A stretch of DNA of 64,000 bases. Origin: Octopus vulgaris (lineage: Eukaryota). Positions 5,928 to 58,833 of this stretch are shown one piece after another (within the stretch, counting starts at the first letter, position 1; each line of letters starts with the position of its first letter). The translations under genes were made by a program, and so were the position numbers. The notes beneath the pieces are model-generated. The model searched no databases, was not told the DNA's origin, and saw only the letters and a list, made by a program, of their open reading frames with translations. The stretch is from positions 63,674,001-63,738,000 of the forward strand of contig OX597818.1 of assembly GCA_951406725.2 (NCBI GenBank), written 5' to 3'.

Positions 5928-5989
<62 letters not shown>

Positions 5990-6139
5990 AATATAATAGA
6001 GTATCCACTATGTGGTCGACTCTTGCGCTAAAAATAGATCCGCTATGGTCTCAACCACCAAGAATTGTTTCCAAGGAGAATTAGTACAACTATGAACGTA
6101 AACGAGCTGGACAAATGAAAAATAACAAAAATGTACATT

Positions 6140-6212
6140 AATTCTAGACAATTGTTTCGCTATTAATGGATTATGCAATTTTACTTACATAATATAGCTC
6201 TTCAGTAGAATT
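6140..6212 (-). ncRNA. Type I hammerhead ribozyme fold (palindromic stem III)
   Basis: Minus strand: aattcta CTGAAGA gctat...atagc GAAA caattg TC tagaatt. 7-bp stem I, stem II gctat/atagc, GUC triplet. Confidence 0.8.
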
Positions 6213-6392
6213 CGTATTGAATACAATTTACTGAAGCCCACGCCAGATTTTAACATGACGTCAAACACACGTGTGGTTCAGTCAATTATATTCGCAGTTA
6301 TGATTCGAATGCCCTCGTAATTTACCGCCAAAATTTCCGGAAACAAATACTGCATAAAAAATTCACTGCAGTATAATTAAAATGAAAAATAA

Positions 6393-6437
<45 letters not shown>

Positions 6438-14505: not shown

Positions 14506-16575
14506 TTTTTTTTTCTTCTTTCAAATTTTCTTCCATTTCTTGCCGAGTGGCTTCCCGACTCCTAGGGCAAAGAAACTCATAGTGTATATTGGTAGGCCAT
14601 TAAACCAAACTCAGTAGTTCGTTCATTTTTTTTTCATTTTTTTTATTTTTTAGTTAAATTATAATACATGAGCAGCAACAGTTCTCACATCGACAATGCT
14701 CTTCTCAATACGTGTGATGTACCAGTTAAGACAATCTTTTGCACTTCTTGCAGGGATGGTAAGCCAGGGATCATTCTCATATAATTTTCGGTTCCCTTCT
14801 TGATCATTCCTAGTGCTCCTACGATCACTGGTATTGTAACCGCCTTGAGATGCCACATTTTCTCAATTTCAATGAGTAGGTCTTTATATTTTCTGAGCTT
14901 GTCAAACTCTTTCGCTGAGATATTATGATCACAGGGGATGCTCATGTCGATCAATAAGCAAACTTTATTGTTTTGGTCTTTCACAACATTATCTGGTTTA
15001 TTGGCTTTGATAGTTCGGTCTGTATGTACTGGAAAGTCCCACAGAATGGTTACATTTTCTCCTTTAGTTACAGCCTCAGGGTGGTGATTATACCACTTGT
15101 CGGCAGTTTTGATATTGTAATGCCGACTTATTAGCCAGTGGAGATATTGGCCAACTCTGTCATGTCTTAATTTATACTCCACTGGTGCTAAGACTTTACA
15201 TCCAGAGATTAGGTGGTCCACTGTTTCAATCATGTCGTTGCAGAATCGGCATTTTGGGTCTGCTCCATTTTTCATCTCATTGGCCTGGTAGTTCCGGGTT
15301 GATAGGCTTTGGTCTTGAGCAGCCAGGATGAAACCTTCGCTCTCTGCTTTTAGCCCTGAGCTCCGCAGCCACTGATGGGTTTGCTTCAGGTCAACATCAG
15401 CTTGTTTGCTGCGGGTTACATATTTGCCGTGCAGAGGTTTCTCCTCCCACCTATCAGCCAATTGCTCGTGCGCTTTTTTCATTGCCATCATTTTCACCTT
15501 CTTTGCAACAATAGTTGCCGTACTTCCCTCGGGTTGTTCAGTTTGGGTATCCTGCACGAGATCAATAGCAAATTTTTTGCTTTCCTTGATGATAGAATGA
15601 AGCTGCTTTCGTCTCTCGTGATTTTCCACGAGCTTTAGCATCCAGTCATTCGATATTTTGAGATATTTGGCCAGTCCAATTGTGGTTGTTTTGTAAGCTA
15701 GTTCAAATTGGATCAGGCCTCGACCTCCTTGGGCTCTGGGAAGGTAAAGGCGATCTACGTCTGCCTTTGGGTGGTGCATCCTATTACAACTCAGCAGCTT
15801 GCGTATTTTTCTATCTATATTCTTTACTTCACTCATATTCCAGTTCAACACATTGTAACTATAAGTAACAACTGGAACTGCTAGGGAATTTATAGCTAAC
15901 ACCTTGTTACGTGCATTTAGTTCAGATTTCAGGACTGCACGAACTCTCCTATAACATTCCTTCCTGATTTTCTCTTTCATGCTTGCATGCTGAATACCAG
16001 AGCCTTCATTTATCCCTAAATATTTGTATGTTTGTTCTTGCTCAAGCTCTCTTATGACTGTGTCAACATCTAACACGACTGAATTTGTGGTCTTCAATTT
16101 CCCTTTCTGGAAAGTGGCCTTGGCACACTTCTCAAGTCCAAACTCCATCCCGATGTCATCGCTGAATGCTTTCACGGTGCGCAATAGGCCTTCAAGTTCA
16201 TTATTGTCTTTACCATAAAGTTTTAAGTCATCCATATAAAATAGATGGCTTATTTTTTTATTGGCAATTTTATACCCATACCCTGTTCTGTTTAATTCAC
16301 TTGTAAGGGGTATTAGGGCTATGCAGAATATTAAAGGTGAAAGTGAGTCACCTTGAAAAATTCCACAGTTGATGTTTATATTTTCTGAGGCAAGTACTCC
16401 ATTAGAGTGGTATAATTGGAGATTCGTATTCCACAACGACATATTGTGTTTCAGGAAGTTTGAAATCACAGGGGAAATTTTGAAGATGTCCAGCGATCTC
16501 AAGATCCATGGATGCGGTATACTGTCGAAGGCCTTTTTATAGTCAATCCATGCGGTGCTGAGATTTCTGCGCTTA

Positions 16576-16577
<2 letters not shown>
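14505..16577 (-). mobile_element. R4/Dong-clade non-LTR retrotransposon, 5'-truncated, inserted in (TAA)n
   Basis: RT plus restriction-like endonuclease ORF, ~180-bp 3' UTR and short A tail. (TTA)n on both sides (14440-14504 and 16578-16775). Confidence 0.93.
14685..16576 (-). CDS. Partial Dong/R4 ORF: RT, CCHC zinc knuckle and RLE endonuclease (~630 aa, uninterrupted)
   Basis: WIDYKKAFDS, GIFQGDSLSP, HLFYMDDLKLY, FGLEKC, YKYLG, CRFC-x8-H-x4-C, RHD, KPD, D...E..K..KY. The poly-Asn N-terminus of the listed ORF comes from the flanking TAA repeat. Confidence 0.92.
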
Positions 16578-16672
<95 letters not shown>

Positions 16673-16686
16673 CATTATTATTATTG

Positions 16687-16777
<91 letters not shown>

Positions 16778-17291
16778 TCCATTCATCCATTCGTTGATTC
16801 ACTGCATGGAATTGAACCGACAACCTTTGCGGTAGAAGCCACTGCTATTAAACATTACGGTATATGCCCGTGGGCATATAGCGTAATATATTGTTATTAT
16901 TTGGATTGCAAGATTTATGTCAGTCTCTCTTTCTCCTTCAAGTGCTGTAATCCACAGAACTTTGACAAAAATTATGGAAGCATCTTCTACCACTGGCAAG
17001 TCCATTTATCTAATTAATGAGCCCATGACAGATTATATATTCCGGTGAGAATATGCAACTGCAGAACACACAAACTGGAGTTTAACTACCGGATACTATT
17101 TAATACCATACCGACTTATATATGTATATAAATATATATATAATTATTGAAGTAGATAAATGAATTATCTTATTACGGATTATTCAAATGATAACCGATA
17201 CCTGGGTAGCAAAAATCACAGCAGAAAAGCACGGTTGAGATTACGACCATGGGGCCTAAAATCCGTGCCTTAGTGCGGAAATTTGAAGTTT

Positions 17292-22733: not shown

Positions 22734-22779
22734 ATATATATATATATGAACGAGATAGAAGCAACAAGAATGGATTGGT

Positions 22780-22870
22780 TTTTAGTACAATTGTTTCATA
22801 CAAAGACAGGCTTTATTACAAGTTGCAAAAATTGCAGCAGATAAAAGTGTCCCGTACTCATCAGCTAAAA
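22780..22870 (-). ncRNA. Hammerhead ribozyme in the inverted 5' pseudo-LTR
   Basis: Reverse-complement copy of 27161-27251. Confidence 0.85.
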
Positions 22871-23313
22871 TACATTTGAGTTCTCTAGACATCTTAGTGG
22901 GTGAGGTTATACTCATGAAATATTGGAGATAGTTCCATTAGAGGCAGATATAGGTTGTAAACAGTTTTCCAAAGTTCCTTAATGATGATGCACAGTCTTA
23001 TCACAGATTTTTCAAAAACTTATTAGTTTCGAAGAGAAGATGAATCAATCCATAGTGTAGATTTAAATTTCCAGAGATATGTATTTAACCATTATTAATT
23101 CACAATCATTTCATGCTATATGATAAGGTAATTTGCCATGTTATTGCTCTCCGTGCAAAACTCCTATGTTGAGAATTCTAAAGGCTGAAGGAATTTATTT
23201 GTGGGGCAAATAAAATAAAATAAGATAAAAGAAAAAGGAAAGAGACAAGGAAAAAAGAAAAAAGAAAAAAAGAAAAAGAAAAAAGAAAAAAGACAAAAGA
23301 AAAAGAAAAAGAA

Positions 23314-25659
23314 AAACCATGCGAGCACAGAATCAACCTTAAAGACCACAAAAAGAATTTCTTGGAAAACCCTTCGGTAAGGTTGATTTGTCCAACTAAG
23401 TCGGACATTGGCCGACTTAGTAAATCTATCCTGCATACTGTTCTACCCCAAATAACCCCTTTTCTTCCCTTAAGCCTATGGCTAAATACAGATGAAGTTC
23501 TAAAATGGTTTAACTCTCTAAATAATACTAGTAGTCTGTCCTTTATTCAGTTCGATATAAATAGTTATTACTCTAGTATTTCCCCTATCCTGCTAAACAA
23601 ATCACTAATTTTTGCTATGAATCGCTCCCTCATATCTAGAGAAGAAATCAATATTGTGCTACTAGCTAGGAAAACATTTATAGAATTTGAGGATAAGGTA
23701 TGGACTAGAGCAGATACACCTAATTATTTTGATATACCCATGGGTTCCAGTGATTCGGCTGAGGTAACTAACCTAGTAGGCGCGTATCTATTAAAATGCA
23801 TAAGTAAGGATATTCCAGAACTACAGGGCGGTTTATATAGGGATGATGCTCTGTTTGTTATCCCTAGTAATAATAAATCTAGTATAGAAAGGATTAGAAA
23901 GAGAATTAATAAGTTTTTTAAAGATTTTAACCTCAGCATAACGTATGAACCTGGCACTAAAATAGTTAATTTCCTAGATATTACGTTAGACCTTAACTCC
24001 AAGCTGCATTACCCATTTAGAAAAGAAGGCGAAATCACGAGATACGTAAACAAATTATCCAACCATCCACCAAATATAATTGAATCTTTAGCCAGAAATA
24101 TTTCATTAAGAATTTCAAAATTATCTTCAAATAAGGATATATTTAACTCCCATTCTGAACATTATAATACAGCGTTAACTAAGGCAGGATACAACCAAAA
24201 AATTACATTCATAGATAAGGGGAACTTACATATTCCTAATAAATAAGTTATCATTAATCACATAAGCAGCAATATAGACCAGGCCTGAAATAGAAGTAGA
24301 AATAGATTCACGGTAACCGCAAATCTAGCGTACAAGCCCAATAATTCAAATAGAAGTAAAAACCAAAGAATAGATAATTCGGATAAAATGGAATTAGATA
24401 AATCAAAAATGCACACAAATTATAGTAGTAAGTACAATGACTTTGATAAGATGAATAATAATAATAATTCTACGAACCCTGATTCTAATTCAAGGAAATT
24501 TAATAGAAATAAAAAAAAAAAAATAAAAAAAGATATAGTGTGGCTGAATATTCCTTTCAACTGTGCGATTCAATCGGATATACAGAGCAAATTCAAAGTA
24601 ATTCTAGAAAAAATATTCCCAATCTCTCATAGATATCATAGAATTATTTCTAAGAAAACAGTTAGAATTTCTTATTCAACCCTCCCAAATATGTCCACTT
24701 TAATAGCTAAGATTAATAATAACAACATTAAACTAGCCAGGAAAGATGAAAATAAAAATAATAATAACAACATGAATACCAATAACAATTATAACATTAC
24801 TAACAACAATAAACGCAACAATAGTAACTATCAAAACACGGATGGAATCAGTAACCACAAAACGACTAATAATAATATTAGCAGTAATAAGAGTAGTAAT
24901 AATACCGATACTAATAGAAGTAAAAATGTTAATAATAGAAGTAAGGCTAATAGAGAAAACGCGGAGAAGGAAAATATCAATGATATCTATAGTAACAATA
25001 TACAGTTTGATAATAATACTAACAATAATAGTAACATTACTAATAATGTGAATAATCATGGTAGGACTTTAGACCTAAAAGATGGATCAATAGGATCAAT
25101 AAATAATAACAATGCTTTAGATAACAACACCAACTATAAATATAATAATAATAATAAAGATAATTATACTCATGATAATCATAATAATAAGAACATAAGA
25201 CATCTACCCATGAATAATCCAACTTCTGAAGTTGTTCCTCCTGCGTGTAAGTGTAGAATTAAGTCAAGATGCCCGGCACCCGGTCTTTGTGGGGAAAATA
25301 ACGTAATCTATAAATGTACCATATCTACTGAGAATAACAATTTTTTTTACATTGGGTGCACAATAAATTTTAATAAAAGGGTTAGAAACCACATCTCATC
25401 TTTTGGATTACGTCATAAAGCTGGTACCACCACACTTTCAAGTAAAATTTGGGAACTCAAAAATAATAAGAATTATAATCTTAATTGGGAAATAGTTAGG
25501 AGAGCAATACCGTATAAAAATAGCAGGGTTGGTTGCCAACTCTGCTCAATGGAGACCTATGAAATTCTAAGGCATAGAAAAAACTTGTTAAATAACCATA
25601 TTGAAGTAGGACAAGTTTGTGTCCACGCTAAATTGAAGACCCTAAAATATTTTGAGTGA
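23314..25659 (+). pseudogene. PLE polyprotein: RT (23314-24243) and C-terminal GIY-YIG endonuclease in one frame, broken by TAA 24244 and TGA 24286
   Basis: LKDHK..NPSVRLI, FDINSYYSSI, PMGS, LYRDDAL, VNFLD, SNHPP; then CKCRIKSRCP (CxCx5C), VIY..YIG, R..H, CQLC..E, CVH. ORFs 23362 and 24388 share one frame. Confidence 0.88.
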
Positions 25660-27160
25660 ATAAATGTATAGAACAATCGTAACAAGATAGGTAGATAAAT
25701 ATAACCGGGTCTTTTAATAGTATAACATTATTTTTTTAAGTAGATATCTGCGATTTCTCACACTATACTTATCTTTTTCTTTGTAACTACACCTGATTTT
25801 AAACTTTGGGAAATTAAAATAGTATTCGTACATTGCTTAATTGAAAGTTTATCTAATTCTTAATTCTTAAATCTTAATTTTTAGTGTTTATTTAATTCTT
25901 AAATCTTAATTTTAAATTTTAAATTTTTAATTTTTAATTTTGGAACTTAATCTAGTTTAGGTAACACTACTTTAATAAATTAATTTACTAAAGCTTAACA
26001 ATTCTATTACAGAATTAATTAAGCGAAGAAACTCCCTTGAAAGTAGTATGATAAATTTCAATAAAATAGACAATTCCATCACACCTTGTTAATTAAATTC
26101 TAGGTTTTGACCGGTAGTCCGTTGATGTTATTGATAGTAACGGCTACAATTTTTAAGACGGTAACATGAATAAATAAATAAATAAATAATTTAAATGACC
26201 TCTGGTTAAGGGTTGCACTTAGATCCTTTCTCTTATTGTATTTCCTTTTAACGATAGCTATTGACCCCTCTACCCCTGACCTTGTTTATCTCTTTAAATT
26301 CTCTTTAGATTCATATCTGCTTTCATCCGTGTCAGGTTGATAGTAAATAGCTGTGTACTGGTCAAAAAAATAATTTTCTTTCCTCATAGTTCCTGAATTC
26401 TTAAAGATTCTTAAAGATTCAAGCTAACTAAGCTATCTACAAATTCTTCTGTATTTGGTCACTTAAAAAAAAACCCTCCCGCTAAGTTGTCGCAGTATAC
26501 TCTATATAGGCGCCTTTTCTTTTCTCCCCATTCCACTTTTTCTTTTTTTCTTTTCCTTTTTCTTCTTTTTCTTTTTTCTTTTTCTTTTTCTTTCTCTTTC
26601 TTTTCCTTATTTCTTCTTCTTCTCCTTTTTCTTTTTCTTTTTTCTTTTTTCCTTGTCTCTTTCCTTTTTCTTTTATCTTATTTTATTTTCTTTGCCCCAC
26701 AAATAAATTCCTTCAGCCTTTAGAATTCTCAACATAGCAGTTTTGCACGGAGAGCAATAACATGGCAAATTACCTTATCATATAGCATGAAATGATTGTG
26801 AATTAATAATGGTTAAATAGATCGTCTGTGAGTATGAAATCCATCATCTTACCACTGGAAATGTAAATCTTCACTATGGATTAACTCACCTTTTCTGTGA
26901 AGCTAATAAGTCTTTAAAAACCTGTGATAAGTCTGTGCATCATCCTCCTCATATCTCTGGAAATTTAAATCTACACTATGGATTGATTCATCTTCTCTTC
27001 GAAACTAATAAGTTTTTGAAAAATCTGTGATAAGACTGTGCATCATCATTAAGGAACTTTGGAAAACTGTTTACAACCTATATCTGCCTCTAATGGAACT
27101 ATCTCCAATATTTCATGAGTATAACCTCACCCACTAAGATGTCTAGAGAACTCAAATGTA

Positions 27161-27251
27161 TTTTAGCTGATGAGTACGGGACACTTTTATCTGCTGCAAT
27201 TTTTGCAACTTGTAATAAAGCCTGTCTTTGTATGAAACAATTGTACTAAAA
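27161..27251 (+). ncRNA. Type I hammerhead ribozyme in the 3' pseudo-LTR (long stem II, palindromic stem III)
   Basis: ttttag CTGATGA gtacgggaca...tgtctttgtat GAAA caattg TA ctaaaa. Confidence 0.88.
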
Positions 27252-27392
27252 ACCAATCCATTCTTGTTGCTTCTTTCTCGTTTATAATCACCCCACATTA
27301 CTGTATGGATAACACCATATAGTTTTTCTGGTGCATCTAAGTTAAATACCACATTCAAGTAAATTCATTGGAAGTTACTTGAATCTTAATTG

Positions 27393-27464
<72 letters not shown>

Positions 27465-38150: not shown

Positions 38151-39595
38151 TTTTTATCTTCGCGTATGCATTATGTATATACACACATACACACACTCAC
38201 ATACACAAACACACATAAAAATCCACGCACACACACGCAGACACACACACACATATATATACATATATATATGCAGACGCACATTGATGTGCATACAGTA
38301 CACCTACATATATTCTCTTTGCATATTTGTTGGGAATTAATGATTGCTATTTCCAAAACACTATTTTCAGATACCCGGAGAGAAAAAGGGAAAGACAGAA
38401 AGTTGGAGTTTATCAAATAACAGAAGTGTAGTGACATCACGAATTATACATTATTTCGTTTATGTAACACCAGAATATAACAGTCATTTTGTGTTTCAGT
38501 TACTTTTACAATTTTAGAATCCCCCTTTCAGCTGAATCTCTTTATTCTATCTCTCGCCCCTTATAATCACGAGTCTTAACTTTTCTTTGCGTATCATGAA
38601 AATTGATCGAGAACAATTGTACGAAAACAATTATTCGAAAAAAAAAAGCATTATTCGAAATAAATATAATTTGTGTATTTGACTTTTAATTTTATCAGTT
38701 TTGTTTAAATGACATTAAACAGAAATTGAATAATTAACATTTCTTATCATTGTTTATGTGGATAATTTTCATTCATACAAGTTTCCAGTCGAAGCAAATA
38801 ATAGGTAGGAAATATCCTGTTACCTTTTCTAAATAAAAATATTGTGCTTCTTCGGCAAAACACTGATTTGTACTTCGGATATTCTTTATTGAGTGGAAAT
38901 AAATCGCCTCCATCTTGGTTTTCCTTTCTATACCTAATAGGACATATTTAGCAATATTTTGGAAATTTATAAGGATATCATATATTTTTTTTCTTTCACG
39001 TGTTACAGTCATCTCCACCGTGGTCATGCTGGTGTACCGCTTTCTCGTCAAAGAAATCGACCTCTGAATGGATTAATGGTTGAGAAGCAAGCTCATCATC
39101 ACACAGCCACACCTGTGTCTACATTAGTCTTTTGTATCTTGACTTTTTTTGTTTCAGTTATTAGACTGCGGTCATGATGGGTTTTCTATCAGTTTCTGCA
39201 GTATCAAATCCACTTAGACGGATTTGGCAATCCATGGGCTATAGCAAACGCCACTTTCCTAAGTTACCACGCAATAGGACAGATCCCGGTACTGTCTGGT
39301 AACGGATATCGATAGTATATACAGATATCCTATCCCTTAGTTGTTACTATAGCCACTAACTGTGTTTACATATATATATATATATAATGATAAATCTCAG
39401 AGCGAGTTATAAACAGTAGCGGTAACACATTGTGATGCACATATGCCATTTGAATATGGCTAACCCATAAGGGTGGATGCTACTGTAGTTTGTTGCCCCA
39501 GGAAGATATCTCCTCCAGCTGGTCATAGACACACTATCTGTGTCCTGTCAGTATTTGTGAAGGGGAGTCATCCTCCCCGTCTTCAACACATGATA

Positions 39596-39640
39596 CACAC
39601 GTACCCGAGTTTCAAGGTGTTTACCTTTCATCAGCGTGTG
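39596..39640 (-). ncRNA. Type I hammerhead ribozyme (left arm)
   Basis: Reverse complement of 39823-39867. Confidence 0.88.
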
Positions 39641-39822
39641 ACAATCATGGTTGTCGATGAGAAGTCAGATCCCTTCACAAATACATATACTTTTTCCAGT
39701 GTCGATTTGACACTGATATTGAAAAAGTGAAATCAAACATTCAATATCAGTGTCAATTCGATACTGGAAAAAGTATATGTATTTGTGAAGGGATTTGACT
39801 TCTCATCGACAACCATGATTGT

Positions 39823-39867
39823 CACACGCTGATGAAAGGTAAACACCTTGAAACTCGGGTACGTGTG
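39823..39867 (+). ncRNA. Type I hammerhead ribozyme (right arm)
   Basis: cacacg CTGATGA aaggt-aaac-acctt GAAA ctcggg TA cgtgtg. Canonical core, perfect stems I and II, GUA triplet. Confidence 0.9.
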
Positions 39868-40032
39868 TATCATGTGTTGAAGACGGGGAGGATGACTCCC
39901 CTTCACAAATACTGACAGGACACAGATAGTGTGTCTATGACCAGCTGGAGGAGATATCTTCCTGGGGCTACAAACTACAGTAGCATCCACCCTTATGGGT
40001 TAGCCATATTCAAATGGCATATGTGCATCACG

Positions 40033-40080
<48 letters not shown>

Positions 40081-40109
40081 ATATATATATGTACATATGT
40101 ATATATGTA

Positions 40110-40243
<134 letters not shown>

Positions 40244-46114: not shown

Positions 46115-46273
46115 CTGTGTGGTAAGTAGCTTGCTAACCAACCACATGGTTCCGGGTTCAGTCCACTGCGTGGCATTTTGGGCAAGTGTCTTCTGCTATA
46201 GCCCCGGGCCGACCAATGCCTTGTGATTGGATTTGGTAGACGGAAACTGAAAGAAGCCTGTCGTATATATGTA

Positions 46274-46356
<83 letters not shown>

Positions 46357-46556
46357 CTGTGTTTGTCCCCTTAGCATTGCTTGACAACCGATGCTGGTGT
46401 GTTTACGTCCCCGTCACTTAGCGGTTCGGCAAAATAGACCGATAGAATAAGCACTGGGCTTACAAAGTCCCGGGGTCGATTTGCTCGACTAAAGGCGGTG
46501 CTCCAGCATGGCCGCAGTCAAATGACTGAAACAAGTAAAAGAGTAAAAGAGAGTAA
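46115..46556 (+). mobile_element. Near full-length SINE family B
   Basis: Highly similar to 30444-30870 and 52231-52674; internal (TA)n(TG)n. Confidence 0.9.
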
Positions 46557-52230: not shown

Positions 52231-52463
52231 CTTACTCTTTACTCTTTTACTTGTTTCAGTCATTTTTTGACTGCGGCCATGCTGGAGCACCGCCTTTAGT
52301 CGAGCAAATCGACCCCGGGACTTATTCTTTGTAAGCCCAGTGCTTATTCTATCGGTCTCTTTTGCCGAACTGCTAAGTGACGGGGACGTAAACACACCAG
52401 CATCGGTTGTCAAGCAATGCTAGGGGGACAAACACAGACACACAAACACACACACACACACAT

Positions 52464-52503
<40 letters not shown>

Positions 52504-52674
52504 TTATATACGACAGGGTTCTTTCAGTTTCCGTCTACCAAATCCCCTCACAAAGCATTGGTCGGCCCGGGGCTATAGCAGAAGACATTTGCCCATAACG
52601 CCAAGCAGTGGGACTGAACCCGGATCCATGTGGTTGGTTAGCAAGTTACTTACCACACAGCCACTCCTGCGCCT
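52231..52674 (-). mobile_element. Full-length SINE family B
   Basis: Same head, body and tail as 30444-30870. Confidence 0.9.
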
Positions 52675-58677: not shown

Positions 58678-58833
58678 AGATAGATGTATAGATATAAAGA
58701 TACATAAATATATATATAGTGAAGTATATTTGCCACGTAAATGTGGCTAGACCCCTAAGGGTGGATGCAAATATACTTCACGATGTGTTGCAGCTACTGT
58801 TTATACCTCAGTCAGGGATTTATTATTGTTTAT

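Follow-up and report, generated by a model that had tools for sequence, protein, structure and literature searches.

A retrozyme palindrome in the Octopus vulgaris genome, likely formed by two-site priming of Penelope type, and a LINE that appears to home into the same family

How a near-perfect palindrome with a hammerhead motif in each arm comes to stand in the genome of Octopus vulgaris, and whether such a palindrome is itself the unit that moves, is the question raised by a locus within a stretch of 64,000 nucleotides (assembly GCA_951406725.2, contig OX597818.1, positions 63,674,001 to 63,738,000; hereafter the window). The window palindrome is one head-to-head insertion of a 353-nt monomer, not the unit itself (Table 1). 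Its inverted arms (39429-39723 and 39740-40034) are 295 nt each, 98% complementary and separated by 16 nt, which confirms the palindrome of the original prediction, whose arms of 292 bp held 4 of the 5 positions at which the two arms differ. The extent first assigned to it (39432..40031) captures the palindrome and misses the start of the element, which lies at 39386 owing to a 43-nt extension of the left arm. In monomer numbering, where M1 is the predicted cleavage site, the left arm makes a full turn ending at M216 (39386) and the right arm runs from M232 to M173. The 16-nt segment once taken for a hairpin loop is M216-231 of the left arm, continuing its monomer in register, and the arms meet in a blunt join at 39739/39740. 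The element holds no ORF of at least 130 aa, other than two frames overlapping its end that read through (TA)n, and no LTR pair was found in it.

Table 1. Coordinates of the head-to-head insertion, its parts and a separate Penelope-like element in the window (positions counted from the first letter of the window).
Feature	Position	Strand	Remark
Whole head-to-head insertion, 353-nt retrozyme family	39386..40034	n/a	within (TA)n
Left arm, one full monomer turn	39386..39739	-	long (site B) 3' end; BLAST of rotated monomer
Tail between end sites A and B, 43 nt	39386..39428	-	left arm only
Right arm, 295 nt, 5'-truncated	39740..40034	+	short (site A) 3' end
16-nt segment originally read as loop	39724..39739	-	monomer sequence in register with left arm
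Hammerhead type I motif	39823..39867	+	predicted cleavage after 39861 (GUA)
Second hammerhead motif	39596..39640	-	cleavage-site A at 39602
LINE target site, 20 bp	39803..39822	+	empty in window; duplicated around LINEs at other loci
Mirror copy of LINE target site	39641..39660	-	empty in window
Rod extending stem I	39778..39912	+	39779-39792 pairs with 39899-39912
Left (TA)n flank	39369..39387	n/a	target microsatellite
Right (TA)n-rich flank	40033..40242	n/a	
Separate Penelope-like element, set in (TA)n	22745-27397		inverted pseudo-LTRs
RT frame of that element	23224-24246		
Asparagine-rich linker and GIY-YIG-like end of that element	24289-25659		
Hammerhead in each pseudo-LTR of that element	22864; 27167	-; +	

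The monomer belongs to a multi-copy family. A search of the genome (2.8 Gb, 227 contigs) with the arm returned 2456 first-look candidates, which are not copy numbers and of which the best 40 were scored, at 95-98% identity; a further search of the family gave 3096 first-look candidates, likewise not copy numbers. The exact 45-nt hammerhead has 98 genomic matches, and its reversed control has none. Tandem copies repeat every 352-353 nt with at least two consecutive ribozymes, in arrays of up to 8 full units, and the window copy itself is without a tandem pair. Units of one tandem array share private variants, and this, together with arms longer than one monomer, suggests a circular or multimeric template. 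One 266-nt contig (run X1, presumed RNA) crosses the monomer junction, as tandem DNA would explain equally well as a circle; in four contig sets from presumed-RNA runs, no joints, starts or ends were found. The copies, the tandems, the lack of an ORF and an inverted arrangement known from PLEs uphold the earlier description of the retroelement as young and protein-free; it is multi-copy and of the retrozyme or non-autonomous Penelope-like (PLE) kind. Of the linkages anticipated for the genome-wide copies, multiple copies and tandems are present, and a joined PLE ORF was not found in the copies examined. Elsewhere in the window (58716-58831) lies an older relative, about 80% identical; it is a remnant of 116 bp, still head to head, whose two ends are of types A and B (end sites as defined below) and whose flanks are rich in (TA)n.

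A motif scan places in each arm the hammerhead of type I that had been described, and under strict settings it finds 5 motifs in the window compared to 0 in any of 60 Markov-simulated windows. The Rfam search disagrees: there is no hammerhead hit in the window at the gathering threshold and none among the 58 hits at E<=10, which belong to generic hairpin (miRNA) models. The attribute "canonical" is therefore supported by motif scan and covariation and unsupported by Rfam. In a comparison of 9 copies taken from diverged families, both partners have changed in 6 of the 13 base pairs and pairing is kept in 91.5% of cells, a figure that comes from related sequences and so is not a probability, compared to 13-49% in slid controls. 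The predicted rod fold likewise holds up, the right arm reaching -109 kcal/mol (z -6.55) with none of 200 shuffles equally stable. Stem III is short and self-complementary, palindromic in most of the families, and cofolding predicts a hammerhead dimer through it, as has been described for animal type I hammerheads (PMC4209133). In Xenopus retrozymes, 8 of 9 predicted dimers were uncleaved in vitro and 1 of 9 was cleaved (10.64898/2026.07.22.740005), hence activity of the predicted ribozyme here is not assured; folding suggests that cleavage, if it occurs, would probably proceed as a dimer. A third hammerhead motif of the window, on the minus strand at about 5985-6395 (core at 6205), has a long stem II and a palindromic stem III; with a (TA)n tract on either side, the stretch of about 410 bp that holds it resembles a further solo pseudo-LTR or retrozyme.

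The arrangement of the copies was analysed in a census of all 84 loci that contain the 98 exact hammerhead matches, amounting to 83 insertions given that two loci (L003 and L115) are the halves of one; selection for an intact ribozyme biases the arm lengths in this set. Two arms, always head to head, are found at 44 of the 84 loci, and 40 were scored as one-armed, among them 4 two-armed insertions that are split by a LINE. The 3' ends fall at two sites about 43 nt apart: site A at M155-178, mostly 173, and site B at M205-226, mostly 216 or 219. The two-armed loci obey a strict rule, with 38 ending in one A and one B, none in A+A, none in B+B, and 6 having one atypical end (2 of these LINE-split); at 50:50 odds, 38 of 38 A+B has p=3.6e-12. 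One-armed loci end at A in 19 cases, at B in 20 and elsewhere in 1. Of 30 loci selected by similarity as a second set, three repeat one-armed loci of the first set and 14 are two-armed, these comprising 12 A+B, 1 B+B (L070) and 1 other; ten LINE-split insertions are also A+B. The microsatellite (TA)n is present at each end of 37 of the 44 two-armed loci; at one-armed loci it adjoins 36 of 40 3' ends versus 17 of 40 5' ends. Target duplications of 11-13 bp are seen at 4 sites outside microsatellites. No two of the 50 A+B loci examined have the same junction between arms; 32 of the joins are overlaps, 8 are blunt and 10 contain inserts. The lengths of the two arms show no correlation (Spearman 0.03, n=50), and the ribozyme is present in both arms at just 22 of these 50 loci. 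The arms of a locus nevertheless agree in 215 of 223 comparisons of polymorphic sites (34 loci), versus 63% when shuffled and a maximum of 75% in 2000 shuffles.

These features together make it likely that the palindrome arose by Penelope-type priming at two sites within (TA)n, with the products joined head to head; the homing of the LINE, considered below, is a separate matter. To proceed, the retrozyme would be transcribed and cut by its ribozyme, giving a circular or multimeric RNA template. A Penelope-type protein, supplied in trans and acting as a dimer with one subunit per strand, would cut both strands of (TA)n, the opposite target strands would be primed at the fixed start sites A and B, both of them on a single RNA or each on its own RNA from a common source, and the two cDNA arms would be joined head to head. 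For the anole PLE, it is reported that the protein, a predicted dimer, cleaves AT-rich DNA on both strands and extends both, and that it starts at two adjacent RNA sites which delimit the genomic tail (PMC11167929). In the in vitro work of the same report, start sites did not differ between the strands and ribozyme cleavage was unneeded for insertion (PMC11167929), which limits the support that it lends to a two-site model. Inverted 5' copies, often with a tail at one end, are known marks of PLEs (PMC8557442, PMC3846280).

A second arm might instead be generated when a single cDNA folds back and primes itself, or from an antisense template, and such an origin has been proposed for inverted junctions of Penelope (PMC3846280). 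It accounts for the haplotypes common to both arms and is in line with the short overlaps at 32 of 50 junctions, and the window copy alone, its A arm contained within its B arm beyond the 16-nt spacer, is also compatible with it. The haplotype sharing could also be explained by later gene conversion or by two RNAs of one source locus. An arm made by fold-back recopies only what the first arm contains, and this fails at loci such as L041, L029, L117 and L121: the B arm, though short, includes tail sequence missing from the A arm, which in turn greatly exceeds it in length. Each arm has sequence that the other lacks, so neither can have templated the other, and fold-back is rejected at these loci for that reason. 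The lack of correlation between arm lengths and the equal frequency of A and B ends among one-armed copies also speak against it, and we regard fold-back as an improbable source of the second arm.

The enzyme that would perform the two-site priming was sought next to the retrozymes. No RT or GIY-YIG ORF lies in, or is joined to, any retrozyme copy examined, and PLE pieces found nearby at 4 distinct loci are truncated or stand apart from the retrozyme. The PLE RT piece beside L115 was rejected as partner, for (TA)n separates it from the element and it starts in mid-frame, marking it as a neighbour. The separate PLE of the window has a short left end and a right end longer by 112 nt, and also reads A+B. 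Its family (17569 first-look candidates) includes several frames of about 980 aa, and 10 stretches of it show two end sites, 7 short and 2 long, with 1 lacking the motif. As the autonomous partner this family was likewise set aside, given a tail of about 112 nt as opposed to 43-46 nt and no significant sequence match to the monomer; a kinship of the monomer with pseudo-LTRs was not seen in the one PLE family compared. Two further elements of the window may be recorded here. A 719-aa frame at 14685-16844 on the minus strand, preceded by an (AAC/AAT)n tract, matches RVT_1 (E 2e-22) and has a C-terminal cysteine/histidine and nuclease-like region; it is likely a non-LTR element with a restriction-like endonuclease. 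Another inverted repeat pair, at 46163-46467 and 52327-52611, is spaced about 5.9-6.1 kb apart.

Five loci share at least 1.1 kb of sequence joined to the retrozyme at exactly M295. Considered as the body of a parent PLE, this sequence was rejected, as it is a LINE by its Pfam domains (Exo_endo_phos, RVT_1, zf-RVT). At full length the LINE measures about 5.3 kb and encodes an ORF1 with a CCHC knuckle and an ORF2 of the order APE-RT-zinc finger, the latter intact at L179 (1129 aa). Against solved structures, ORF2 matches best human L1 ORF2p (E 5e-64) and less closely R2 (4e-25). With this domain order and best match, the LINE falls into the L1 group. Its protein relatives number 556 at E<=1e-20, hardly any of them named and none returned as a named Tx1 reference, the nearest named one being a hypothetical protein of Argonauta hians (63% identity over 42% of the query). 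From architecture and targeting, we label the LINE as putatively of Tx1 type.

A search with 403 bp of the LINE 3' end gave 568 candidates, and one for a sister subfamily gave 243; in each, the best 40 were scored and 30 cut out. The join is at M295 in 20 of the 21 best 3'-end matches, with young retrozymes and an 87% subfamily both hit, and the sister subfamily joins at the corresponding position of retrozyme families that are 70-79% alike. Among the best-scored candidates, with identical flanks merged, retrozyme target sequence adjoins 46 of 48 distinct LINE 3' junctions, two of which retain only a stub of 17-20 nt, as compared with the more than 20% of flanks in one repeat by which target specificity is called in the Tx1 clade (PMC4494074); L145 and L163 are off target (2 of 48). 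The main subfamily inserts mostly 26 nt before the ribozyme core, in the same orientation as the retrozyme, and the core is at the modal distance in 34 of the 48 distinct junctions. Full-length copies are flanked by duplicated M295-314, the target duplications measuring up to about 20 bp, and the duplications on both sides of the LINE share locus-private variants at L184, L187 and L188-190. Judged by these junctions, the LINE homes into the retrozyme family: its endonuclease would recognise the retrozyme site, and the LINE may owe its transcription to the retrozyme, as R2 does to rDNA. Loose ends matching the LINE 3' and 5' junctions occur in runs X4 and X10, in one contig each.

Several individual loci deserve mention. 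L177 (C7) has LINEs in both arms of one two-armed retrozyme, and at L122 (C20) a truncated LINE takes the place of the centre between the mirror target sites. At L165/L194 and L214, the sister LINE precedes a hammerhead family without BLAST match to the monomer, in which 35 nt, and not 28, separate the core from the junction mark. In L188-L190, the LINE opens with bases similar to those with which hammerhead stem I begins in the target, as would result from capture of target sequence into the LINE 5' end.

The association could alternatively reflect no homing at all, the LINE having entered the retrozyme by chance and the composites having been spread by the Penelope machinery. In agreement with spread as composites, the majority of the examined LINE copies lack truncation at either end and have less than two monomers of flank, and mosaic upstream flanks occur in 2 of 13 cases (L171, whose flank is of ambiguous origin, and L186); in the other 11 of 13, the retrozyme subfamily is the same on both LINE flanks. 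At L186, an unbroken run of 14 diagnostic sites immediately upstream of the LINE matches the other subfamily at 13 of them and neither subfamily at 1, which suggests that the upstream retrozyme sequence was likely carried from a donor locus. The segment concerned (L186, 1579-1864) shows the old retrozyme subfamily over the 70-110 nt before the LINE 5' end, and the rest of the host is young. Spread as composites is difficult to reconcile with LINEs 89-97% alike sitting in host families only 70-87% alike, with each locus duplicating its own target variant, private changes included, with a 5'-truncated LINE joined directly to retrozyme sequence (L099), with a LINE 3' end placed within the duplicated target of another LINE (L152), and with an off-target LINE that has a 13-bp duplication of its own (L174). 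We thus give little credence to chance insertion and keep to homing as the explanation of the LINE junctions.

One may go further and arrange the parts as a chain of three tiers, in which two-headed rolling-circle priming by a Penelope enzyme disperses a ribozyme circle and a LINE lineage, specialised on the genomic copies of that circle, borrows parts from them. Two RTs would work 43 nt apart on one RNA, one for each cut strand. The LINE would be transcribed from the retrozyme and the upstream retrozyme sequence carried along could anneal at the 5' junction, a step postulated for R2, whose RNA would do so through target sequence from upstream (PMC3774820). The host hammerhead would set the 3' end of the LINE RNA 59 nt past the LINE end, and the resulting trailer, matching the target, would direct the next round of priming to the identical position of another copy. 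As a whole this chain is tentative, and we consider it doubtful.

The original prediction saw in the palindrome a strand-symmetric mobile unit whose RNA can fold either as active ribozyme or as dsRNA, hence a built-in switch. The window copy itself accords with that view, both its arms having an intact motif at 98% complementarity, and there is a weak excess of A>G among rare variants (p=0.05). The unit claimed is contradicted by the family at large, with 40 of 84 loci scored as one-armed (four of them LINE-split), no junction recurring among 50 loci, two ribozymes at only 22 of 50, and outer ends that are asymmetric (38 A+B, 0 A+A, 0 B+B) and thus not equivalent. The switch fares no better in equilibrium folding, where the whole-palindrome hairpin has -581 kcal/mol compared to -221 kcal/mol for the arms folded apart, favouring the duplex by about 360 kcal/mol. 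Hammerhead stems I and II, predicted to pair with probabilities of 0.99 and 0.96 in one arm alone, have a predicted pairing probability of 0.0 in the transcript of the whole palindrome, and a single sense ribozyme per transcript cannot release a monomer. Regarding editing, the rare variants of 269 young segments comprise 63 A>G versus 41 T>C (p=0.05) and 68 A>T versus 48 T>A; the genomic copies thus bear no clear editing mark, the weak A>G excess being accompanied by a similar A>T skew. A mobile palindromic switch is accordingly very improbable to us. On the two-primer reading, the window copy would be a dead-end product, because any transcript crossing it would fold into a duplex of about 295 bp in which the one sense ribozyme is hidden. 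Read-through transcription would yield dsRNA, and nothing indicates that this is a conserved feature.

That the locus is a DNA fold-back element (MITE) or an assembly artefact, as its long, near-perfect inverted arms might suggest and as the absence of any contig spanning the whole stretch (in the runs examined, whose short contigs make this uninformative) would allow, can be dismissed with near certainty, for arm lengths and junctions vary, the ends are unequal, one-armed and tandem copies are numerous, 5 differences separate the two arms, the tail of one arm obeys a family-wide rule, and the fixed, equivalent terminal inverted repeats of a fold-back DNA transposon are absent.

Retrozymes, inverted and tailed PLE copies, and Tx1 LINEs that target transposons are all already known. 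The octopus family resembles the animal non-LTR retrozymes in its type I hammerhead, a repeat of about 350 nt, low GC, tandem copies, lack of an ORF, a rod-like predicted fold and co-existence with PLEs (PMC7229834, 10.64898/2026.07.22.740005); the repeats measure about 350-390 bp in mussel and are of similar size in coral and axolotl (PMC7229834), and retrozymes have recently been tied to PLE pseudo-LTRs (10.64898/2026.07.22.740005). In the portions of these sources covered, published retrozymes are monomers and tandems, not inverted copies, and neither tails nor (TA)n targeting are described, whereas about half of the loci here are two-armed under a strict end rule; the words "inverted" and "microsatellite" have no occurrences in PMC7229834. 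Expression and circles have been demonstrated for published retrozymes, and the octopus family is known here from genomic sequence. With endonuclease-positive PLEs, as far as the cited sources were covered (PMC8557442, PMC3846280, PMC11167929), it shares the head-to-head inverted copy, the tail at one end, copies truncated at the 5' end, partial tandems, insertion into (TA)n or AT-rich DNA, target duplications of about 8-13 bp and a hammerhead upstream of two 3' end sites, and it is distinct from them in having no joined RT/GIY-YIG ORF, a tail of 43-46 nt and an A+B rule that is counted (38 of 38) rather than optional.

The Tx1 clade includes Tx1 in Tx1D, Tx1-Mar in Mariner-N4, Keno in U2, and Kibi/Koshi in microsatellites (PMC4494074). 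The homing LINE has in common with these elements the APE-RT architecture, the fixed site in a multi-copy repeat, transposons included, the target duplication and, at the junctions seen, the lack of a poly(A) tail, and it differs, relative to the covered parts of that source, in that the target is a hammerhead retrozyme whose ribozyme is left intact 26 nt downstream in the same orientation (PMC4494074). There exist analogies to R2 in a site-specific LINE that would be co-transcribed with its host repeat, and the L186 flank recalls the annealing proposed for R2; in contrast, R2 brings its own 5'-end ribozyme and a restriction-like endonuclease, whereas the ribozyme beside the homing LINE is that of the host repeat, on the LINE 3' side (PMC3774820). 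In a literature search conducted mostly outside subscription journals, no report was found of octopus retrozymes or of a counted one-A-one-B rule. Neither was a LINE targeting hammerhead repeats, with the proviso that the "satellites" listed among Tx1 targets in a legend of PMC4494074, a source covered in part, could be such repeats. The main text of the octopus repeat annotation paper (PMC13282606) has no occurrence of "ribozyme" or "hammerhead".

Lastly, our analysis has importance for how ribozyme-bearing retroelements move and for what they may host. The LINE target is of a kind that we did not find in print, a site next to a ribozyme inside another retroelement, tracked across host families 70-97% alike. 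If it is true that the LINE uses the host ribozyme, it would define its RNA in a manner new for LINEs; its endonuclease, with duplications of about 20 bp at the target, is a candidate for a site-specific integrase. The origin of the inverted ends and the one-sided tail of PLEs has been called undefined (PMC8557442, in the part covered), and the octopus family gives a counted rule for such ends: one A and one B, of the same haplotype and of independent lengths. With 353 nt, the monomer is a substrate that allows a direct test of the two-primer model. For animal retrozymes in general, whose movement by Penelope machinery was previously argued from co-occurrence and sequence kinship, the family adds structural evidence.
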